Positions 6,794-49,759 of a stretch of 64,000 nt of DNA are shown one piece after another. The DNA comes from Girardia tigrina (taxonomy: Eukaryota). Below the pieces are notes generated by a model that worked only from the letters and a program-made list of their open reading frames with translations, had not been told where the DNA came from and searched no databases. Position 1 is the stretch's first letter. Every line of letters begins with the position of its first letter. The translations under genes and the position numbers were made by a program. The stretch covers positions 17,797 to 81,796 of the forward strand of contig MQRK01236006.1 in the NCBI GenBank assembly GCA_001938485.1. The letters are read 5' to 3'.

Positions 6794-7538
6794 TTAGGTT
6801 GTCCTAAAAGTTCCCGGTCAAGAATAAAAAATACATTTTCTGTGCAAGAATTTATTTTAAATAAATAAATAAATAAATTAATCTTCAAGGCAGGGTACTT
6901 CTGCTTGAGCTTCTCGTAGACACAGTCCAGCTGTTGACAATAGAGCTCTGCATTGATGGCCTGGCCTTTCTGAACCAACTCAAAGTGTACGACTTTGACC
7001 AAGTAGACCCACTTCTCGTCCGACGTCACAATTCGCTTCCAAAAGTGGTCATCTCATAGATTCTGTAGTAGTTGTCGGCAAATTTGGACTCTTTTATAGG
7101 CCTTTGCTTTGGTGAGTTCGTGTGGATCTTGACGAGGTTTCTTGTTCACAAAGTCGATCTGCTTCAAATGCCAATGTATGGTTAACTTGCCAATTCCAAG
7201 CTTAAATGCCAAATTGCGAGTGCTTGACGAAGGCTTCATGTCCAAATCTGCTTGCAAGTCATCGTTATCTAATTTTGTTGGTCGTCCAGAACCAGGACCC
7301 ATTCAAGTCAAAGTTGCCTTTACCAATCAATTGCCATACTTTTTCCGACCGTTTGTGTACCTTCAACTTAGGAAATTGCCTTGGCAGCATCTCGTGTTGT
7401 CAAGCCTTTCTTCCAATAGTGACGTAGCAACACACAATAAATAAATCTATATATATATATATATATATCAAATAAATAATGCCAAAAAGAAATTTGAAAG
7501 AAATTTATTATTGACCGGGAACTTTTAGGACAACCTAA
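6794..7538 (-). mobile_element. Internally deleted mariner transposon
   Basis: Perfect 28-bp TIRs TTAGGTTGTCCTAAAAGTTCCCGGTCAA with TA TSDs; remnants GSGRPTKLDNDDL, DPHELT, VTSDEKWVY, INAELYCQQL. Confidence 0.92.
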
Positions 7539-9162: not shown

Positions 9163-12100
9163 TTGGGCTGTTGCATAAGTTCCCGTTACATGAAACTATT
9201 TGTTCTACAAAGACCTTTTGATGTTTGACGAAGTGTTATATGCCATTAGATAGCCCGTGCTATGTTCTACAAGATTAAAGTAATTCTTTTTGCCTATATA
9301 ATTTTTTTGTCTTTTTAGAACGGTCAAATGGATTGTCAAGACTACAAAAATCGCATTTTCGACACCTTCTTTTCGCATTTAATTTAGGTCAAAAAGCGAG
9401 TGAAGCTACCAGAGGTACTTGTGCAATGTATGGAGAGGACGCTATAGCTGAGAGAACTGCTCGGGATTGGTTTTCCAGGTTCAAACACGATAATTTCGAC
9501 CTCAATGACGCTCTTTGTTCCGGAAGACCAGTCGAGATGGACGAAGACCAACTCGGGGATCTTTTGAAGGAAGATGGCTGCCAGATATGCAGGCTGAAAA
9601 GATGAATTGTGATTTTGCGACAATGTCACGCCACCTTCAGTCAATGAGTTTCACTCAAAAGTGTTGCGGTCGAAAAACCCATTTACGTATTTTAACATAA
9701 TTACACAAACACACAAACACAGCACTCAGCAAACAGAAGGAAAAGAAAGTCAGTAAAATTTAATACATATATTTAACGAACATGACAACACTACAGTAGA
9801 CGAGTTTCAGAACTGTCGAGGCCCACCAGAAGGTCGGTAGGGCATCGAAGACGTTGAATAAGAACTAAAACTGTAACATAAAGAAAATAAACAAAGTCGA
9901 ATAAAAACTTACCCGATGATGAAAATCGAACAATCACCCCTCCACAGTTGGAGCATTGCGAAGCGCACATATGACGGTGACCCGTAAGAACGTAGAAGAT
10001 CCCTGAGAGAAGTTATAAACCTTAAAAGAATAAAAAAATTAATCAATAACTAGATCGAAAAGGATGAAGTCCCTTACTGGAATACCCAGTAGAGTTGGGG
10101 GTCAACCGACCCTCTCCGAACAGCCCCTCACACGACGAGTCCCTGAGTGGAACTTGTGAGACGACGACAGATCCCCGAAAAAAGTTATCGGTCCTGAAAG
10201 AGCAATAATTAATTAAGAATCAGACAGAAAACAATAAACTCCCTCACCGGGGTATCCAATAGAGTTAGGAGATCAACCAATCCTCACATGAAAGAGCATC
10301 GCGAGTACAATTCCTGAGCGAAGATATAACTCCTGAAAGATTCAAAAGTCAATTAACAAATATAAAATAATTAATTAAACTTACCATGACTCAACAGTAA
10401 AACACGAGATCACCTGACGACCATGAATCACCATGAATCATCGGTGAATAATCCGCACGTGTGTCCTGAAAATATTAACGTATGTGTCGACATACAATTA
10501 CAAAATTCTATAGTAAATCAAAAATTACCAAAAATTTTTGAAGGCACACGAACAAGCCCGACCAACCAGCATCACGGAATTTTGCAGTCTTCTTGCTGGC
10601 ACAAGGCAATTGGCCGAGAAGAGACAACAGGACAACCTATCCATGGTATAAAATGAGAATCATTTTTCAACTAAGTCGCACATTTTTGAAATAAAAACCA
10701 ATTTTACGTTTACGCATAACGTCGAGATATCACGCTACCAAAGAAGTTTCGAGTGAAAGCAGTTGATCCATGAGCACACCGCAGACGAAAGAGCGACAAC
10801 CTATCCTTGAAGACCGGCGATATCAACGAGCGAATTTACGGCACCGAGAGAGTAAATCCCAGATCCTAGTGCAGACTTACCGACGAACGCTTCAACCGAT
10901 TGACACGCTGACGAGGGAAAACCATTCAAATCTCACCGATCGACGATTGAGCCAGCGAACCTCCGGATACCTATACCGATACTGTAATTTTGATTAATTT
11001 TTAGAAACATAGTTGATTAATTTTATTTATGTTAATACATGTATTTGACCAATTCTTGTTAAGTTATAATAAATTTATTCAATTATTTCTTATTTGATCC
11101 ATCGAATTTTAATAAATTAATTGTTACCATATAAACAACAGTGGTTTGGTCTGAATATAAACAGTCTATGAGTATGTTCCTGATTGAAATTAATACCCGT
11201 CAGTCTGATTAAAAGCCAATAACAGCTCGAACACCCATTCCTTCGGAGCCGTAGTTGATCATTAGTTCTCCGGTCGCCGTCCGCGTCGCCAGTGAATATC
11301 TAGAGATGCAGGTCCATGTTATTCAAAAGAAATTCCAATTTGTAGTTAAATTTACAAATTTCCGAAGAGTTTCAAACCGTCGAGCGGTTTGTAGGGCGAA
11401 CCTTAGACTATTCAAACAAATAAAATTTCCCGTAAATAAAAGTCCTATTAATTAGCGATTTTTTTTATAAAATTTTGATACTAAATAGAATTTTTATAAT
11501 AATAGAGTTTTTGAATTATAAAGTAGAATTTTTATAGTCATTGATTTTTACATTTAATTCTAATATGGTGATTTTATAGTAATAATATGGTAATTTGGAG
11601 TTAATTTCTTTCCATTAACTTTACAATGAATCAGTTTTATGATGAATTAATTCTAGTGAACTTACCAATTTCGAATGATTATTAAAATTATATAGTGAAT
11701 GATGATTAGAATTTTTATAATGGATTTTATGAGATTAGAATTACTAAAGAAAAATACGAATTGTTGATAGAGGTTTTCACAAGTTTTACAATAGGAATTT
11801 TGACTAATTAATGAATAATGCATAATTTGACAGATAAGTAACGAACAATCGATAAGTTGAAGGAGTTTAGATAAATCAGTAAATGTCAATAGACTTATAA
11901 TCCTGTTGTTGATGAGTCCATGGCAAATGTATTGATGATGTTTTAGCAACGAAAACGAGCGACTAGGAAGCAAATTGATGACCTAAATTAGTACGGCCGA
12001 TAGTAAATCAAAGCGATCCTATGGCGCATCAATACGAAGTAGATAAAATGTGATAAAACGATAGTACAATAATATTTAACGGTCGATATCATGAATATAA

Positions 12101-13130
12101 TAATAATTCCCTTTAGAAATACATCAGTGCCTCAAGCCTACATGCAGACACACCACATAACAGTGCCACAAGTTGAAAAAATGGACATATCGATTACATT
12201 GAACAGACATGAGCGATACATACATCTAGGGAATATATCACATACCCCTATTGATACTGACCCAGGTGGGGGGCCAATCGTCTATCCCATCTTGAACCGA
12301 ACCCGAAGGCCCTTCAAGCTCGGCACTGCCAGTCAGATGTCGAGTAAGAAGAGGCGTCCGACCCTATTACTGACGAATCTCCTGAAAGAATAAACAACTT
12401 CTTAAAATAACATTGGGTTGTGGTTGACCCTTAACAATCACTGGGGGCTCTTGAGCTATCATAAATGTTTGCACTCGAGAGGGTCATGGCAAAAGCTTGG
12501 TGCTTGGGTCCCACACGAACTCACCCAAAAACAGAAGGATAAGCGGCTTTCCATTGCTGCTCAAAATCTCGCTCAACACCAAGGAACCCATGACCACAGG
12601 CAACGTTTCTTATACAGAATCGTCACTGGAGACGAGAAATGGTGTCTCTATGTGAATATGAAGCAAAGGAAAGAGTGGGTGAGTCCTGGAGAGAAGCCTA
12701 AGCCCAGGATCAAGAAAGACCTGCAACCGATGAAGAAAATGATTTGCGTATGGTGGGATTGGGAAATGCTTGGAAAGAACATGACAGTAGAAAAACATCT
12801 CTATAAAGCCCAATGAGGCAATTCAACAAAAGACCATTCAACAAGGCCAGGTGATCCTCCGCCATGACAATGCTCGACCACACACCGCAAAAACCGTCAA
12901 GATGGCACTCCAAGAGCTCGGTTGGGAGGTCCTTCAACATCCTCCCTACTCCTCAGACCTCGCCCCGACGGATTACCCTCTCTTCCGCTGCCTTTCAGAT
13001 GAAATGAGGGGTCTTAGCTTCGAAAATCAGGATCATCTTGAGAATTGGCTCAACAACTTCTTCGAGACTCGACCTAAGGATTTCTGGCGAAATGGAATCA
13101 ACAAACTGGTGGAAAGATGAGAAGAAATGA
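9163..13130 (+). mobile_element. Mariner transposon pseudogene split by a 2.83-kb insertion
   Basis: Left TIR TA|TTGGGCTGTTGCATAAGTTCCCG; N-half 9333-9661 (HFRHLLFAFN, ARDWFSRFK, SGRP); C-half 12492-13120 (KLGAWVPHELT, TGDEKWCLY, HDNARPH, PPYSSDLAPTDY); right TIR not found. Confidence 0.92.
9662..12491. mobile_element. 2.83-kb TG...CA insertion with 4-bp TSD (large solo-LTR-like)
   Basis: TSD AAAG at 9658-9661 and 12492-12495; removing the insert and one TSD restores mariner ...FTQK|LGAWVPHEL; no gag, pol or transposase motifs inside. Confidence 0.8.
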
Positions 13131-13939: not shown

Positions 13940-15316
13940 TTAGGTTGAGGAATAAGTTCCCTCCGTTTTTTGAATTTTTAATCAATTTTTAATCAATTTA
14001 ATATTTAAATCAAATTTTTTGATGTAATGTTATATGTTATTTGAAAGCTATTGTTTTGCTCTAAAAATTGGTGCATTTTGTTTTTTTATTCAGATTAATT
14101 TTTGTCGATTTTTAGACCATTGAAATGGAGAGTCAAGTCGACAAAAATGAGCATTTCCGACACCATCTATTGTATGCGTATAATCGAGGCGCCAAAGCCG
14201 CAGACGCTGCCCGAGAGTTTTGTGTTGTATACGGAGAAGGTACTATAGCCAATAGAACCGCTCGTGATTGGTTCTCAAAATTTAAAATTGGCAATTTTGA
14301 CCTCAAGGATGCACCTCGTTCAGGATTAAAAATAAAGAATGAATTCGATGAAGAGCGTTTGAACAAACTTTTGCATGAAGACGGGTGTCAAACCACTCGA
14401 GAATTGGCGGAACAAATGGATTGTGATCAAAAAACTGTGGTGAACCACCTGAAATCAATAGGAAAAGTTCAAAAAATGGGAGCATGGGTCCCACATCTTT
14501 TGACCGAAAACAACAAAAACCAGTGATCCACAATTTCGGCGAGTTTGTTTGCCCGTCATCGCTCTACTCACAGTCATAAGCAACAATTTCTTTATCAAAT
14601 TGTAACGGGTGATGAAAAATGGTGCCTGTACGTCAACATGAAACAGCGCAAAGAATGGCGTAGCCGAGAAAAACAATCGACACCGCGAGCAAAACAGGAT
14701 TTTCATCCACGAAAGACAATGCTATGCATTTGGTGGGGTTGGGAAGGGATTATTCATTATGAATTGCTTCCTCGAAACCAAACAGTGAACGCAGAACTTT
14801 ATGTTCAACAGCTGCATAGACTCAACGCCNNNNNNNNNNNNNNNNNNNNNNNNNNNNNNNNNNNNNNNNNNNNNNNNNNNNNNNNNNNNNNNNNNNNNNN
14901 NNNNNNNNNNNNNNNNNNNNNNNNNNNNNNNNNNNNNNNNNNNNNNNNNNNNNNNNNNNNNNNNNNNNNNNNNNNNNNNNNNNNNNNNNNNNNNNNNNNN
15001 NNNNNNNNNNNNNNNNNNNNNNNNNNNNNNNNNNNNNNNNNNNNNNNNNNNNNNNNNNNNNNNNNNNNNNNNNNNNNNNNNNNNNNNNNNNNNNNNNNNN
15101 NNNNNNNNNNNNNNNNNNNNNNNNNNNNNNNNNNNNNNNNNNNNNNNNNNNNNNNNNNNNNNNNNNNNNNNNNNNNNNNNNNNNNNNNNNNNNNNNNNNG
15201 AAGAAGTCGTGAACAATGGCGGAGATTATATTTGTGATTAATTTGTAGTAACTTTTTTGTTAAAAAATAAAATTTTAATTTTTCAATAAACGGCGGGAAC
15301 TTATTCCTCAACCCAA
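13940..15316 (+). mobile_element. Full-length mariner (D,D34D type), transposase 14125-15241 with premature stop; spans an N-gap
   Basis: TIRs TTAGGTTGAGGAATAAGTTCCC / GGGAACTTATTCCTCAACCCAA with TA TSDs; WVPHLL and TGDEKWCLY motifs; in-frame TGA at 14524-14526. Confidence 0.95.
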
Positions 15317-16060
15317 TATAATACATAAATACAAGGAGATAAGTTATTTCGGTAAATTTGGTTCTAATTGTAATTCTAAGAAATTAAATTATTTAAAAGA
15401 AAATATTAAATAACAAATAATAATAAAAATAATTATTTCAAATTAATTCTAGCTATAAATATATGATTGAGGATTTATTCACAAAAATCGAATTTTATAA
15501 AATAAATTTAACCTCAATGTTCAAAAGTCAATTATTCTTAATTTATTTTGAAAATTTAATTAAACTAAATTAATCTGAGAAATTTAAATAAATTAAAATA
15601 CAAAATATTAAACGAGACTTAAGTTTCGTTTTTACAAGGACAGTTTATTTTTCAATTAATTTCTAACTTTTTAAATATTGTTTTCAAAATAACGTCTCTC
15701 CGGAAAACCTAGCTAAATTATAAATTTAGAGAGAAATAAAGTTTTCAATTTTCAATAAATAAAAATCATATTTTTTATAATTTTTATTATTATTCTGTTT
15801 TTAGAATTGTCTCATAATTATTTTTATGGAGGGCTTTTTCGTAAAATTCACAAAATAATCACTTTTTTCTCATGACTTTTTCAGAAGTATAGTTTTCCAG
15901 AACCCGATAGCAATGTGTGGATGAAAAATAGAAAAAAAATCCTACAGTTTTAGAGTTTGAGAATATATATTACAATTTTTAAATAATTGAGAAAAAACAA
16001 AATAAAATTTTTTTGAAGAAAGGAAACTCAATGGTTGAAGCTGCTCTTATCCATCTAAAT

Positions 16061-28711: not shown

Positions 28712-29228
28712 AATGGGCTCAATCTAACAGATAAAAAGTTAAGATTCATATTACCGATTCTTCAATTTTCAGATACAAGCTGTGGTACATAAATATTTTA
28801 ATCTAGTTTCTGACTAAGTAAATCATTATAATTAGACTCTTTCAAGCTTTTTTTGTTGCGTGATAAAAATCTTCATCTCTACACTTTATGTTCGACTTTG
28901 TTAATAAATATAGTTTTTTGTTGTTCACTATAACTAGTTTATGTTATTTTATACTCATCGTAAAAATAAAGCACTTTCAGAGTATAATCGGGTTTCTGTT
29001 GAGATTGCTTTGTTTTTTTTAATAATGATTGTGAGGATTTTTTAGCAAACTCAAAAGTTTAAAATATTTTACTGTAAAATATTTTAAACATAATGTATAA
29101 AAATTTTATAATAATTTATACGTTTCAGGAAGTTATCAATATTTAAAATTCAGGTAATTATGATTTTTATAAATAATCGTTTTCAAAACTAATTATAATT
29201 AAAGCTATTTTACAATTGAATATAAAAA

Positions 29229-29369
29229 TGTAATTTCACCAGAAATAGAACACCACTAAACAACAAAAAAGTTTATTTAAGTACAACACAAAAAATCAAA
29301 TTCTGTTTTTACGTTTTTTATCACGTATTTAAACTAATTTTATTTCGAATATTTAACAGCATTATTATA
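29229..29369 (-). repeat. Putative 3' LTR (141 bp) of the Gypsy element
   Basis: On the minus strand it follows the purine run GGCGGGGA (PPT-like), begins TATAAT (eroded TGTAAT), ends ATTACA and contains AATAAA. Confidence 0.6.
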
Positions 29370-32300
29370 TCCCCGCCAAAAAGCAGGTATCCATTTCGAA
29401 ATCTCTGTGCCACGGTGGTTCTCTTCTCTCTCGATTGCTTCTGTGTTGCTCGTCACGATTTGTTTGGTCCATGATCTCTTCAACACTCGACTCCTCATTA
29501 ACTGCTTCGCTCTCGTCTTCAGGGCTTTCTAAATCATTAATCAACTTGTTTTCAGGATTATTCTGATCGTCAGATCGTTTTCTGATATCCTGAATATGTC
29601 TCGGAACTCCTTCTACTTCGTATTTGTTGTGATTAATTTTTGCTGTGATTATACTCCGACCCCATTGACTTGTACATCGAATATATTGACTCGGCTTGAC
29701 ATACACTTTCTCTCCTACTTCAAACATTCTACAGTCGTCACTCATCGGTTCCACGTTTATTTTTTCAACCATTATCCTCCAAATATAGTTAAATAATATA
29801 TCACTTGGCGATTTAATTCCATCTTTTCTTCTTTTAGGACCAATACACAGCTTCAGCTATAGCAATATTCTATCTCTTCGCTATTCTTTTTATCGTACGC
29901 TAACAGCGCTCCACAATACCGTTCGTACTGGGTATATGCGCACATCGATAGTCTATCTTAACACTCCATTTAATACACAAGGTTTGAATTTTTCACCTGT
30001 AAAAGCTCCTCCATTGTCGACATGGATTTCTGTGGGAGCTCCATGCTCTATAAATAATTCATCGAGAATTTTTATTACGTCGTCGGCTCCTTCAGTTTTT
30101 ACTTCTCTCCAAATAGAAAATCGACTGATAAATAAAAAATCAATTACTGATAAATATACTCTATTCTTGTAATGAGTATGATCTATAGCCAATCTTTCCC
30201 AACAATTTTCTACCGATAATGATCCCTTTGGTGTTTTTATAGGGGCGGGATCAATACTACTAACCCGTTGACAGTTTCGAACGACACTCTCCATAATCTT
30301 TTCGACACTTCAACACCTTCTTTTTCTGCTATCAGAGAGCTTTTCTCGATCCCAAAATGATGTCGCTCATGACTCTTTTTTGTCTCATTTTATTTTCTCT
30401 CCTGATGAACAATACAAAATTTCCTTTCTGTCCATTTTCTTGGTACTCTGGTTAAGACATCTGCCTTGTTTAGTTCAGAGCGAACTCAATCACACTCCCA
30501 ATCTACTTCGGACTCGTTTAAAATACTGTCTATCATAACCAAACGTCTCCTGCTCAATATCTCATCCATTCCAGTTACTTTTATTCATCTTTTTCTTGTT
30601 TTCAACGCTGCGAGCCAACCATGGACTACAAAGAATTTGTAATTATTAATACTTTCTTCACATTCCACATCAAAGCAAAGTTAATTCCTTTCATAATCGC
30701 TTAAGGCTCATCAATGCTTATATGTGCATAATCATTTTCTTGTCTTAACCAGCTTCCATATTCGATTACATGGTCTCCGATATGCAATATACAACCAATG
30801 GCAATAGAACTTGCATAGCACTATATCGTACATTTTCGGCTCATATCCACATTCCAACGACCTAGTACTGGATCTGAATTACTAGTACGATCCATTACCT
30901 CACGAATAAAATTAATAGACTCTTCATTCACCGGTTTATTCCATTGTAATCCATTACACTACCGTTTTATGTAGCTACATGCTACACGCAACCAATTTCC
31001 AATCTGGTAATGATCAATTAATTTTCCACAAATCGAATATACGCCTCTTTTAGTGATCTTATCTGGAACGTTCACAGGCAAGGGAGTACTCCTCGACCAG
31101 TTTAATACTCCATCACATTGCGACAATTGAAGACCTAGAACTCTCGCTCCGTTTAGTTCCTCTGGATCTTTACATTTTAAACCGTACTTCGATAAATGAT
31201 TCCGTACTTCTTCTACGCTCACTATGTCTTCATTTACAATGATATCGTCTACATAATGACGAATTCCACGGCGAACTTTTTTATCAATGGACATAACCTT
31301 TCCTAAAATCATGGATATTATTTTCGGAGCGGATACTAAAGCAAATCCTAATCTTGTAAGCTCGTAAAATTCACTATTAATTCGCACTTTCTGATACTTC
31401 CGGAAAGTTGAATCTACTACGATTTGTAAATAGGCATTTTTCAAGTCGATAATTTTGCAATTCTTTGGCATACTTCTCAACTCGCGAAGTTCGTCATCCA
31501 CTGATACTGCTTCTAATGTATGAGAACTAATAAACTGATTCAACTCTCGATAATACATGACAGGCCTTACTTTACCCTTTTTTCTTGTTTGACGGAAAGC
31601 AATGGTATAATTCTTTCTCCATCACTATTTGAACTTTTCTTTAACCAACCCTCACTAATCCAACCCTGTTGTACCTCATGAAAATTTATTCTGGTGTCTT
31701 TATCCATATGATAATTCGCTCTTTTATTTGACAACTGAGGCGTTATATCTGTCCATTTCCACTTCACTTCCCACTTCCTTGCAGTTAATTTTGCATTAAA
31801 ATCAATATCATTTATTTCGAGATTTGTCTATTTTGCACCGCTTTGATACAACATTTTATTCGAATATGAATCAATATTATTTCTTTCACTATTCGACTGT
31901 GTTGCACCGCTATGACACACCTCTTTACTATCAATTTTAATACCTCCTCCTTGCATTATTCCATCCATGCTAATAATAACATCTACATCTTTTACTAACT
32001 CACTCATAACTAAACCCTTTAATCTCAATATCACATTAGACTCTGACTCAATCTCTGTCTCACATTCTCCAAGCACAGCTACTTCATTTCCATCAACTGC
32101 TTTAACACACACATTAGACATAAGCATCTTCTCTCTACCTAACTCATATCTTACAATACTCACATCACTCCAACTATCAATAAGAGCATTAACTCACTTA
32201 CCGTTCTACTTCACCACCATCCACATAGGCACATTTCTCTGCGTACAAGAATAGGTGGTGTCAACTATTCTTGGTTTAAGTTTAAATGATTCTTCTTCTT

Positions 32301-32670
32301 ACATTCGTTCGCTTTATGACCCCCTCCTTCACAACCACAACATTTAAACGTATTACTTGATATACACTTCTTGGCTATATGCCCGGGCTTCCCACACGAA
32401 AAGCACTTCAGCATAAAGGTTTTTTGGCGCCTCCAATCCGCCTGATAGAGTTCATCATTCGGCTTTTGCGACATTTTATAAGAATCCCCCCGCCACGAGT
32501 GAATTCCATCGCCCCATGGTAAAGCTCTATAACTAGCACATATAGAAACTTTGCTTTTCATTCCGTTAATTATGATCCTGGCCTTTTCCACTAACTTATT
32601 TTGTGATATTTCGTCTAATTCTATTAATTTTTTCAATTTGAGTCGCACATCATCAGGTAAACCGCTTAAA
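29229..32670 (-). mobile_element. Ty3/Gypsy LTR retrotransposon, decayed and 5'-truncated (gag-PR-RT-RH-IN)
   Basis: Two CCHC knuckles (CFSCGKPGHIAKKC, CCGCEGGGHKANEC); protease ALIDS; RT IDLKNAYLQI, TRLGFALVSAPKI, YVDDII; integrase WERLAIDHTHY, VDNGGAF, FEVGEKVYVK; Gypsy domain order. Confidence 0.93.
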
Positions 32671-32679
32671 AAAACATTT

Positions 32680-32779
32680 AAATATTTGTTCATTAATTGG
32701 AAACTGCGATAATCAAAAATGCACAACCAAAAATAAGGGGGATCGTATACACGGGGATCTTATACACGGAAAAATACGG
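32680..32779. mobile_element. Terminal fragment of a pogo-like DNA transposon at the Gypsy 5' breakpoint
   Basis: ...TATACACGGGGATCTTATACACGGAAAAATACGG|TA, a TA|CCGTATTTTTCCG-type TIR with a subterminal repeat. Confidence 0.5.
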
Positions 32780-33984
32780 TAATTCGTAAAAATAACAATT
32801 TTAATAAATAACATATGAGTATTTGTAATTCAATGTTTTGAGTTACAATCAATGTGGTCGAAAAGAAAACGAAAGAAAAGTTCCTCAACAAAAATTATTT
32901 AAATAATTGTTAGGTGTAATAGAAATAAAGCTTTGCGCTCTTTTGAATTCAATTATTGATCATGAACCTAACTATTCGAGCAAAACCTCAAAAGCATCTA
33001 GGTACTCATTAACACCCCTATCCACTGATACTACCCAATCAAACCAAACATACCGCCAAAACTCTCCCTTTCTCTCAAATTCTCTACCAAATAAACCAAA
33101 TCACCCTATAGAACCCAGTAATTTCTCTCTTCACATAGAGTCATCTAAATTATTCAACTTTTATTCAACCAGTTGACCAAGGATAAAGGAAATATTACCT
33201 TTAGCCTTTCTCTATCCCACTTTTTGTTATTTGCTACACCCTGAAATCTTATCATCAAAAAACCTGCAACTTAAAAATTACTTTTCCCGAAATGCCCTAA
33301 CTTAAGTCCTCTGTGCCTCAAAATAATATTGACAATATCGATACTCCTACTCATATACTCTAAATTTGACAATAGTAATTTTAACAAGTCAATCATTGAG
33401 GAGCGAATTAACAATCTAATGGAGCAACTAATCTGTAAGATTGACCGAAATAGTTCTAGGAAAATCGATAACACTGTCTAAATGCAGCACCACAGTAATT
33501 AGAGAACATGAAGATATTTTATAAACTATTTTAGACTTATTTTTCCAAGCTGATTTCATTCCATACCCAACTCTTTATAAAATTAAAAAAACATACCTTC
33601 ATTTAAAAAAAACAAGTTATAGGTTATACTAAGAACATTTAGACAAGTCTCATTTGAATGTTTATTACAATCACATTTAGAGTCATTATGACTCTCAGAA
33701 GGTCTTTCATCGTTTGTCATCGTTCTAATTGGTTTTCTTATTTCTGTTTTTAATCATGATTAACCTCTAAAAATATTAATTAAAAATATTAATTTTTACC
33801 ATTTTTTAATAAATCCCAAAATAATAAAAATGACATCAAATTATTAAAAATGCATTTAATTTAAATTTTACTAAAAGTTATTAAACTTAATTTTAATTCT
33901 GAAATTAAAGATATGAACTTATAAAATGATTATTTTATTTATGTTCGAATAGTCAATCCTTTAAACTTAATAAAAAAATACCAA

Positions 33985-34087
33985 TTTCCATCTGGTGGGA
34001 GAATCACCATTCTAAATTCAACATACTTAAATCAACATACCGCATCCATACATTTACACATTCAAACAATTTAAAATATTCCTCACA
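33985..34087. repeat. TGTGAGGAAT-type LTR-like terminus fragment
   Basis: Ends AATATTCCTCACA; homologous to 8652-8740. Confidence 0.55.
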
Positions 34088-35564
34088 GGTTATGTTACTC
34101 AACGTCATAAACATCTCGATACATCTTCCTGACTACTTAATACTATAAAATGAGTCCCCTATGGGCAACCTTATTGACCTTGTAAACTCTCTAACGTGTT
34201 AAGCTCCCCAGTAGTTCGTAGAGATATTGAAAATTTTATCCAGCATTTTTACACCAATGATAAGATCCTCTTTGTCATCACTGATAAATAATCAATGATA
34301 ACTATACTAGATTTTCATTTGCCCGATATTTTTATTACCCAGACCGTTTTAGCTCATGTCTCCATAATTCTCCTCCCTTAGTATAGAAGATCATCATTGG
34401 ATTCTGATGCTGATTGACTTTAATCATGAGCAGTCCTTTTAGATGGACCATCTTGATATTAACTCCTTTTTATTAGAAAAAATGTTTCAGTGGAATACTC
34501 AATGTTCCATATGGTAGACTTATTTCTCCCGACCAATCCTTTTGATTGTGGGCGACTCGTTTGCTTTTACGTGCTGCTTTTCTGTGTCCATTAGTTTGTG
34601 CTCCGTATTTCTGTTTTTCAAATTCTTAAAATTCTTTTCTCTATCTCTCCAAACAAACACTTTGACTCAATACAAAACCGATATTGTGAAATGAACCACC
34701 CAACCAAAATTTAAATCGATTAAATTGTAAGATAAAATAATTATTTAAGAATTATTTTTTAAAACTATTACAATTACTTATTGTTTCTGAAATAATAATT
34801 AGCGACCATAGTTTAAAATTAATGGAAACATATTGTTTTATTAATGAAATAAATTTAAATAGAAGATACAATTAATTAAACTGTAATTATTATTATATTA
34901 ATTAATTAATTAATGTAATTAAACTCAAAATAGTTATATTATTGGATTTGTTTCCTTTAATCATCCCTACATAGATGTCTACCGTATCCACGACTAATGC
35001 AAACTATTTTGCTTTCCCCGATATCTTACTAGAGCTGTACTTGCTAAGAACAAGGACTGTCCTTGAGACTTGTGCCTCCAGGATATAGCATCCTGCATCC
35101 GACTATAACCTTTATAACACATTATCATTTATCTGACAGTTGGCTGACCATCTGTTAATCTTGTTCAGAAATTCTTCTAATTAAATCTCTAAAGCCCATG
35201 GCACCGAATTTTGTCAATTTCTCACCAATAATAAAATTAATTAAATTGCAAATCTTGGACGGGCACTTCCTATTCTACAAAATGATTTAATCAAATTGAT
35301 CGTTTGATTTGAAAAAAAACTTATTCGGAATAATTATCAGATTGAAATATCTGGTGAAAAAATCGGTTTTCCTCTTTTATAAGAGTGTATCGTTTGGTTT
35401 TAATTGCTGAGAGATATTCGATTTCCCAATGCTCAACAACGGCTTCAAAAGAAAACTGAAAGAAATTTAAATTATTTTTTAACGCATTTATTTGCAGTTT
35501 AGAGGAATTAGAGAAAAAAACTTTAACTGTTGTGAAATTCCTAAAGCTTTAATATATTGTAATA

Positions 35565-47785: not shown

Positions 47786-48933
47786 TGATGTAATGTTATA
47801 TGTTATTTGAAAGCTATTGTTTTGTCAAGTCGACAAAAATGAGCATTTCCGACACCATCTATTGTTTGCGTATAATCGAGGCGCCAAAGCCGCAGACGCT
47901 GTCCGAGAGCTTTGTGCTGTATACGGAGAAGGTGCTATAGCTGATAGAACCGCTCGTGATTTGTTCGCAAAATTTAAAATTGGCAATTTTGATCTCAAGG
48001 ATGCACCTCGTTCAGGACGAACAAATGAATTCGATGAACAGCGTTTGAACAAACTTTTGCATGAAGACGCGTGTCAAACCACTCGAGAATTGGCGGAACA
48101 AATGTATTGTGATCAAAAAACTGTCGTGAACCACCTGAAATCAATGGGAAAAGTTCAAAAAGTGGGAACTTGGGTCCCACATATTTTGACCGAAAACAAC
48201 AAAAACCAGTGATCCACAATTTCGGCGAGTTTGCTTGCCCGTCATCGCTCTACTCACAGTCATAAGCAACAATTTCTTTATCGAATTCTAACGGGTGATG
48301 AAAAATGGTGCCTGTACGTCAACATGAAAAAGCGCAAAGAATGGCGTAGCCGAGAAAAACAATCGATACCGCGAGCAAAACAGGATCTCCATCCACGAAA
48401 GACAATGTTATGCATTTGGTGGGGTTGGAAAGGGTTTATTCATTATGAATTGCTTCCTCGAAACCAAACAGTGAACGCAGAACTTTATGTTCAACAGCTG
48501 CATAGACTCAACGTCGCTATAAGACAAAAACATCTGGATGGACAACATGGCGTTATTTTGCAACACTACAATGCACGTCCTTATATTGCCAGAATGACAA
48601 AAGAAGCCATTAAAACGCTTGGTTGGGAAGTGTTACCGCACCCTCCGTATTCACCTGACTTGGCTCCATCTGATTTTCATCTTTTCCGTTCGCTTTCTAA
48701 CGCTTTGCGATAAACATAACAATAATGGAGAACTGCAAGTTTGGTTGACTGAATTCTTCGAGTCAAGACCGGGCGATTTCTACAAAAGAGGCATTGAAAA
48801 ACTTGTTGAACGTTGGGAAGAAGTCGTGAACAATGGCGGAGATTATATTTGTGATTAATTTGTAGTAACTTTTTGGTTAAAAAATAAAATTTTAATTTTT
48901 CAAAAAACGGAGGGAACTTATTTCTCAACCCAA
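47786..48933 (+). mobile_element. Mariner, same family as 13940-15316; left TIR and start codon deleted
   Basis: Highly similar to 14020-15316; TGDEKW, HYNARPY, HPPYSPDLAPSDFHLF; right TIR GGGAACTTATTTCTCAACCCAA|TA; same TGA after NKNQ. Confidence 0.93.
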
Positions 48934-49759
48934 TATATAATTACACAAATAACTGATTATATATTGTCACAAAAACGTTGAAAAAAACAGTATTTAATTT
49001 TTGATCTTTCATATTTTCAGTTGACGAAAGTGAAGAACCATTTATTGGAATGGAAGACACGTTTATTTTTAGGGTTTCTTTCTCAGAAATATATCCTGAA
49101 AAAATTATTTAAATATACATTTAAATCAAACCATAATCAGAAATTGTTGGACTTTATATAGACATAATAAACATAAACTTGTATTTGGAGTCTTTGATAA
49201 TAGCTCCTAAAATCTCATAAAAAATTCCTCATCGATTGGTAAATTTTTTGCTTATAAGTTGATTTAAATTTTCTGATGTAATTCCTTATTAAATCTTTAA
49301 GCTTCCTCTTCAATAAAAGAATTAAATAATTAATTAATGTATTGTTTTTTTATACAGATTCATCATTTCGTTTCTTAAAACACATAATAACGCATATCTT
49401 TAGTTAAAGAAAAATTATTTTCGTTTGAAAAGAAAAACATTGAAGTAAAACTTTAACAATATCAGAAAAATTTTAATTGAATCTAAATTTACATTTTAAT
49501 AATAACAAAAATTTTCATTTTGAACAAGATGACACAATTTTTTATAAAAGAAATCGGCCAAGTATTTCGAAGGAAGATTCAAAGACATTTTTTCAGCATA
49601 ATGGTTCTAGGTGCTTTGACTACAGGTGCTTTGACCAAAGCACCATAGGGGGTTTGTCCACAGCGGGGGTTTGACCACAGGTGGTTTGAACATAGGTGGT
49701 TTGTCCACAGCTTTTAATATTTTCAAAATATAATTTGATTAAAGCTTCTTTAATATATT

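Follow-up and report, generated by a model that had tools for sequence, protein, structure and literature searches.

The locus raises the question of why a mobile element of Girardia tigrina should carry five consecutive mini-introns on one strand, and what a transcript made from them would do. In an earlier note on the window (the whole stretch of 64,000 nucleotides analysed here), five minus-strand segments with GT-AG ends had been read as introns of a spliced, apparently non-coding RNA carried by a mobile insertion. Their coordinates, lengths and ends proved to be as claimed: intron 1 lies at 10466..10528 (63 nt), intron 2 at 10333..10384 (52 nt), intron 3 at 10194..10247 (54 nt), intron 4 at 10021..10077 (57 nt) and intron 5 at 9865..9912 (48 nt), all on the minus strand. 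The introns have a GC content of 0.17-0.31 and the intervening exons of 81, 85, 116 and 108 nt one of 0.45-0.55. When the exons were joined, stops were present in all six frames, in agreement with the stops reported before. An intron-pattern search over the whole 64-kb window gave 26 candidates (10 on the plus and 16 on the minus strand), scattered elsewhere, and five consecutive candidates were found solely in this array.

The array is built largely from one repeated unit. Exon 2 (10385..10465, minus strand, 81 nt) ends in a motif at 10387-10393 which we take to be AP-1-like. Exon 3 (10248..10332, 85 nt), exon 4 (10078..10193, 116 nt) and exon 5 (9913..10020, 108 nt), likewise on the minus strand, are repeat units. 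A duplication of an exon-intron unit had been suspected from a common end of two exons, and self-alignment extended it: exons 3, 4 and 5 with their introns are all copies of one unit. The exon of this unit is 117 nt long in most copies at the place of exon 3 and in many at that of exon 4, and the 85- and 116-nt exons of the window are deletion forms of it. Exon and intron together measure 168-173 bp (117 + 51-56), both in the window (10021-10384, minus strand) and in family copies, a length presumably close to the nucleosome repeat. The last exon (9700..9864, minus strand) contains a possible 3'-end signal, ATTAAA at 9764-9759 followed by T-/GT-rich DNA, which is weak and was recognised by eye; the hexamer is not retained in other subfamilies.

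The earlier description of the array as transposon-borne and LTR-like was borne out, as it sits inside a solo LTR of 2830 bp (9662..12491, plus strand in the sense of the element) with TG...CA ends, flanked by a 4-bp target-site duplication, AAAG, at 9658..9661 and 12492..12495 (plus strand). The insertion interrupts a mariner transposase, the front part of which lies at 9279..9661 (plus strand; HTH_48, E 1.8e-15) and the broken rear part at 12496..13120 (plus strand; Transposase_1, E 9e-8; DDE_3, E 2.5e-6). The genome (1.43 Gb in 255,254 contigs) was searched for copies, and the best 40 of 1556 candidates gave 45 matches of 73-92 % identity, the window itself excluded. The ends of the LTR are sharp and common among copies, the alignments breaking off at 9662 and near 12491. 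One LTR end motif occurs at least 1027 times in the genome. Where both ends are present, copies measure 0.85-4 kb; among 13 copies without a primer site, 8 have a 4-bp target duplication. The subfamily of the window was seen solely without an internal region. Two end motifs 30 kb apart in G000:C10512 had no common LTR alignment.

Other mobile DNA surrounds the family. Judged by eye, its solo LTRs often lie within other mobile elements (Gypsy pol/gag, hAT and pogo-like; flanks of L036, L039, L077, L078, L098, L023 and L124). In the window, two mariner-like copies 94-97 % alike were seen at 14021-15320 and about 47786-48937, some 33.6 kb apart, and a decayed mariner-like element at 6830-7400 on the minus strand. 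GC skew is strongly negative (-0.23 to -0.35) over about 6 kb at 29000-35000; this region also has several open stretches on the minus strand and is probably a decayed mobile element. Uninterrupted host-like frames occur near family insertions in L106 (8883 from the primer site, 506 aa), L120 (6560, 198 aa) and L101 (1112, 132 aa); by eye we take them to be sodium-channel-like, Brix-like and a Sec22-like piece, respectively.

Whether the introns are sense or antisense to the element was decided from a primer site that follows the corresponding right end of other copies. CCA just outside the right LTR end was searched for, which gave 89 rows; primer-site-like sequence was present in 6 of the 30 loci retrieved from this search, and in 11 of 11 contigs that had been chosen for a T-run preceding that place. 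Five primer sites match the 3' end of the host tRNA-Pro(TGG) plus CCA over 17 nt. The primer-site-linked LTRs are 64-81 % alike to the LTR of the window in aligned blocks and do not belong to its subfamily; the aligned blocks include both ends and the intron array. Because a primer site comes after the 5' LTR, the plus strand of the window is the sense strand of the element and the introns are antisense to its genomic RNA, one of the two arrangements that the earlier note had allowed a retroelement. The tRNA-Pro(TGG) genes of the host (L166-L169) form a tandem row, about 646 bp apart.

The opposite polarity was considered and rejected: no purine tract common to the copies precedes the right-end motif (8 rows, 4 sites), and no primer site follows the left end (3 rows). 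A polypurine tract was not found in the fragmented assembly, where 18 purine-run matches against 14 in the control had no flank common to independent insertions; three loci matching in this search look like one locus assembled three times. A Ginger-type DNA transposon was also rejected, since the two ends of the element have no more in common than a short, imperfectly matched inverted motif, and one of them is followed by a tRNA primer site. Ginger-type transposons have long terminal inverted repeats and no primer site.

Within the LTR, a sense TATA box is predicted at 10647..10653 (plus strand), with a CCAAT-like box near 10561, about 85 nt upstream. Seven of 13 LTRs have a TATA box at position 974-1016 of the LTR. 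From its position in the window the putative U3 would extend over 9662..10675 (plus strand), and all five introns would thus lie in U3. The sense genomic RNA of a retroelement is the template of reverse transcription, and introns placed backwards are copied into both LTRs. As the present introns are not introns in the sense RNA template, they pass to every new copy. Downstream, a conserved short motif, a T-rich block with a donor-like start, a GC-rich block and a small ORF were observed in R-U5 (window 10960-11420, plus strand). The small ORF of this region is 38-42 % alike among L054, L070 and L113, and the upstream frame is arginine-rich in the window and not conserved. Here the LTR might harbour a small gene and an intron in the sense direction.

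Retention of the splice sites among copies was assessed in an alignment of 32 copies, that of the window included, after five duplicates had been dropped. Of 145 intron-by-copy cells, 134 retained GT and 118 retained AG (127 if a shift of 1 nt was allowed); exact loss of an intron in DNA was seen in none of them. Intron 1 had GT in 25/30 and AG in 26/30 copies, and is not canonical in one group of subfamilies. Intron 2, the most deeply retained of all, had GT in 30/30, intron 3 GT in 30/32 and AG in 28/32, and intron 5 GT in 21/23 and AG in 22/23. For intron 4, GT was present in 28/30 copies and AG in 17/30 at the aligned column, nine further copies having the acceptor displaced 1 nt upstream. 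The sites are thus kept family-wide. That they would be conserved beyond the intron interiors held for the close copies only in part: the sites are retained (GT 0.96, AG 0.90), but hardly above the interior (0.90), the exons being at 0.85.

More distant comparisons concern intron 2 in particular. Genome-wide, the end of exon 2 was followed by the GT of intron 2 in 48 of 52 family rows, a further five of the 57 rows being unrelated, and a second variant of this exon end was followed by GT in 100 of 100 cases among the matches listed, which were 100 out of 141. The joined form, exon 2 directly followed by exon 3, was present in none of the 157 genomic matches listed. A deep alignment was made of nine subfamily representatives with a mean identity of 57 %, taken from 15 hand-picked rows anchored beside the donor. 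In it, intron 2 had GT in 8/9 and AG in 9/9 at lengths of 51-55 nt, and the columns of exon 3 averaged 0.65. TTAATT motifs in the intron interior were as well retained as the splice sites, and are possibly branch sites or factor sites.

The intron calls are strongly biased to one strand. In 43 U3 segments of the family there were 117 antisense calls and one sense call, and the same segments shuffled in 50-nt blocks gave 18.0 ± 4.1 calls (maximum 28) compared to the 117 real antisense ones; these introns had served to tune the caller, and low similarity had led to the removal of 15 of 58 segments, the family members L059 and L064 among them. In 13 LTRs, 30 antisense calls fell in the first 1000 nt and 7 in the remaining 24.7 kb, and no sense call lay wholly within the first 1000 nt. 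From these comparisons of sequence, selection on splicing appears likely for intron 2 and is less clear for the other introns.

The same data can be read differently, with the units as ordinary U3 enhancer repeats, possibly nucleosome-spaced, in which selection acts on DNA motifs and the splice signals are by-products of backward read-through. We regard this as a possible but distinctly less probable explanation than a functional antisense RNA. The putative U3 has about 1-3 tandem units per subfamily, and motifs that we take to be AP-1-like, TTAATTAA and TATAA-like match the splice sites in conservation. The 117-nt exons also align nearly gap-free despite deep divergence. GG dinucleotides had a 10-bp period (p=0.005, 10 related sequences), but of the four dinucleotide sets only this one passed, SS, WW and TT giving p values of 0.26-0.38. 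Weakened splice sites in some primer-site-joined LTRs would fit enhancer repeats as well: intron 1 is non-canonical there, a changed donor 3 is common to the related L111 and L115, and L122 has GC at donor 3. Against this reading, donor, T-rich tract and AG hold their spacing of 51-55 nt in nine subfamilies, and the calls lie on one strand (117 versus 1).

Transcript evidence was sought in three small sequencing runs chosen by species label, which were mapped at 80 % likeness and yielded six contigs; the X1 run is guessed to be RNA. Run X2 had no contigs on the stretch at this likeness. The listing of junctions on the window copy was empty, and junctions were read from the loose ends of the contigs. 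Contig X1 record 3 (depth 3.55) spans exon 2. From its loose ends a genomic copy, L124, was identified, which the contig matches at both of these ends and at four listed variants. The contig is without exactly the two GT-AG introns of L124, 54 and 53 nt long, which are the homologues of introns 1 and 2. Spliced sequence from a family copy was thus found, and with the GT/AG sites retained among copies neither outcome that would have refuted the earlier reading occurred. The proposed splicing stood for introns 1 and 2, removed in one likely-RNA contig from a related copy. Splicing of introns 3-5 is presumptive, and another contig (X1 record 2, also from the run guessed to be RNA) keeps intron 3. 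The upstream loose part of record 3 is 255 nt long, of which 30 letters were seen, and if it is colinear the RNA would extend past the predicted sense TATA box. L124 lies by eye inside the gene of another transposon, which a Pfam scan did not confirm. Because of this position read-through could have made the L124 RNA, and read-through transcription from flanking DNA could be the source of the spliced RNA, as enhancer repeats with incidental splicing would have it. A sixth candidate intron (12441-12382) was rejected, being unspliced in X1 record 4 and without visible conservation in L115.

In one alternative the array is the decayed relic of a multi-exon protein gene captured backwards in U3. 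The exon lengths speak for it, the typical ones (81, 117, 117 and 108 nt) being multiples of three, as are 38 of the 61 called exons, and so does the nearly gap-free alignment of the 117-nt exons. These lengths are not independent evidence, however, because the 117-nt exons are duplicates. Of 16 dereplicated unit exons, frame 0 is open in only 4, frame 1 in 3 and frame 2 in 2; conservation is flat over the codon positions (0.674, 0.685 and 0.687); and after in silico splicing of 25 copies the longest ATG frame had a mean length of 57.6 aa, compared to 52.5 aa in shuffled sequence. We therefore consider a captured gene very improbable, the least so favoured of the explanations discussed here, and the earlier view of the RNA as apparently non-coding agrees with the lack of any open-frame, codon-position or frame-length signal in the family. 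RNA structure was no more evident in the exons: the mean z was -0.15 antisense and -0.07 sense, none of 16 fell below -2, and no consensus fold was obtained.

In other copies, LTRs of this family are joined to a tRNA primer site and to an internal part with gag, ubiquitin-like, fusion-protein, protease and RT regions. Small ORFs occupy roughly the first 6 kb behind the primer site and are followed, in order, by pieces matching capsid, CCHC, ubiquitin, fusion glycoprotein, protease, dUTPase and RT. The gag pieces (Ty3_capsid, E 1.5e-6; zf-CCHC, E 1e-3) are both just under the curated cut-offs. An env of the type Monjiviricetes_fusion (E 1.2e-81) lies between gag and protease in G000:C231567, in which copy the frames are broken. 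The matches to ubiquitin (E 7e-5) and to dUTPase between protease and RT (E 0.005) are weak, though their positions agree with the published arrangement. Burro elements reach a total length near or above 25-30 kb; the present element measures about 20 kb, scaffold gaps included, between primer site and RT, to which a 3-kb LTR is to be added, and the contig ends before the integrase. BCL2-like, BIR, MATH and ankyrin domains had no Pfam match in the eight pieces scanned, in which sequence gaps remain; a BCL2-like stretch in the internal region was noticed by eye alone.

Judged by its domains, the LTR family appears to belong to a Burro-like, env-bearing Gypsy element. Burro elements, giant LTR elements of planarians, have the layout gag, ubiquitin-like, fusion env, protease, dUTPase and RT in the passages of PMC6431247 that describe them. 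The present family resembles Burro/GYPSM1, as portrayed there, in having gag with a CCHC knuckle, a ubiquitin-like part, a fusion env between gag and pol, a protease, a dUTPase-like part and RT, as well as accessory ORFs upstream, long LTRs and a very high copy number. It differs from Burro/GYPSM1 in its roughly nine small upstream ORFs and in the lack of a MATH, BIR or ankyrin match in the eight pieces scanned, being known here from incomplete copies. Antisense LTR introns, present in this family, are unmentioned for Burro/GYPSM1 in these passages of PMC6431247.

The small ORFs (about nine, 105-165 aa) stand in tandem in the first 6-9 kb after the primer site (L122, L110, L123, L112, L116), look coiled-coil by eye and are common to several copies. 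A search of a protein atlas with the first of them gave no usable match. An acceptor-like AG lies 0-4 nt before the ATG in 10 of 25 small ORFs (strict pattern) compared to 29 of 572 other ATGs, in rows that are not independent. Splicing from a single donor, or trans-splicing of a spliced leader, may serve to express the small ORFs.

Of the explanations considered, we favour the one in which the array is the body of a spliced non-coding antisense RNA that crosses the predicted promoter of the LTR and damps the element, and give it about an even chance of being right. Enhancer repeats with incidental splicing come second, protection of the LTR by its introns (discussed below) third and the decayed gene last. 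With self-repression, the antisense transcript would start in R/U5, upstream of the TATA box on the antisense path, and run across the core promoter and the enhancer to an end near the outer margin of U3, with the host removing its introns. The array would have grown by tandem duplication of the unit of about 170 bp. The element would then be repressed either by transcriptional interference or by a supply of antisense RNA to the PIWI pathway. For Schmidtea, passages of PMC8532177 describe LTR elements, including BURRO1, as PIWI targets.

A third explanation turns the effect around. A retroelement is unable to retain introns in its sense direction, and introns carried backwards over the promoter might, through their splicing, mark the locus as a normal gene and shield the LTR from silencing; the retroelement would stack host-style mini-introns over its enhancer, one per nucleosome-sized repeat, and splicing would license the LTR. 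The introns are confined to, and multiplied in, the promoter part of the LTR, and the exons are without coding or structure signal, as such a role would allow. Introns are also reported to counter the silencing of intronless retroelements in human cells (PMC8770142, in part). The human result as given there concerns, however, introns of the very transcript that is silenced, and the simpler expectation for antisense RNA is that it promotes silencing, as the relevant part of PMC2615633 indicates. We consider this explanation unlikely, though less so than a captured gene. If it were true, the host genome would contain, in each of some thousand solo LTRs, a spliced transcription unit ready for use. 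Self-repression, protection from silencing and a mere by-product can be separated by comparison of copies in RNA, small-RNA and chromatin data, because natural copies differ in the number of intact introns.

Antisense RNAs with introns have precedents, and the earlier designation of the array as a candidate for an undescribed system was too strong. Multi-intron non-coding antisense RNAs are published for the telomeric elements HeT-A and TART of Drosophila (PMC2615633, PMC1636488) and spliced antisense RNAs for deltaretroviral 3' LTRs (PMC10186651). According to the portions of PMC2615633 consulted, the HeT-A antisense RNA has several introns, is non-coding, has its start in the 3' UTR, which carries the promoter, and is connected with control by small RNAs; the corresponding part of PMC1636488 describes a multi-intron antisense RNA of TART. 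The reason for antisense introns in the two elements is called elusive in the same portions of PMC2615633. As in HeT-A and TART, the introns of the present family lie on the strand opposite to the genomic RNA and would be kept because the sense RNA is the template. The lack of a long conserved frame also recalls HeT-A, whose antisense RNA is described as non-coding (PMC2615633, in part). HeT-A and TART are, however, non-LTR telomeric elements, whereas the present one is an LTR element. Cryptic sites are suspected in HeT-A copies in these sources, while here uniform introns of 48-63 nt come from tandem duplication inside U3, and every solo LTR has introns because the array is inside U3.

Retroviruses offer a second comparison. 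Antisense transcripts from the 3' LTR include the spliced hbz of HTLV-1 and Ast of HIV-1 (sections of PMC10186651), and BLV has the antisense transcripts AS1 and AS2 (PMC11575825, PMC4855707). The candidate antisense RNA of the present family would resemble those of HTLV-1, HIV-1 and BLV in an LTR working in both directions and in a spliced antisense RNA, partly non-coding there, that is linked to control of the sense RNA. The retroviral antisense RNAs run into the internal region, and hbz codes for a protein, whereas the introns here lie wholly in the putative U3 and no frame is conserved. Antisense introns in the LTRs of Burro or other Gypsy elements were found in none of the titles and beginnings of abstracts listed; Grohme et al. 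2018, outside this scope, may describe Burro LTR transcripts. Splicing of Burro LTRs is absent from the passages of PMC8532177 and PMC11410931 consulted.

What appears to be new relative to HeT-A, TART and the retroviral cases, going by the genomic copies, is an LTR element with a duplicated and uniform intron array wholly in the putative U3. Subfamilies about 57 % alike have such a regular duplicated array inside the LTR, and the genome contains more than 1000 LTR ends. Through its solo LTRs, the family may be a source of numerous spliced non-coding transcripts in the annotation of the host.
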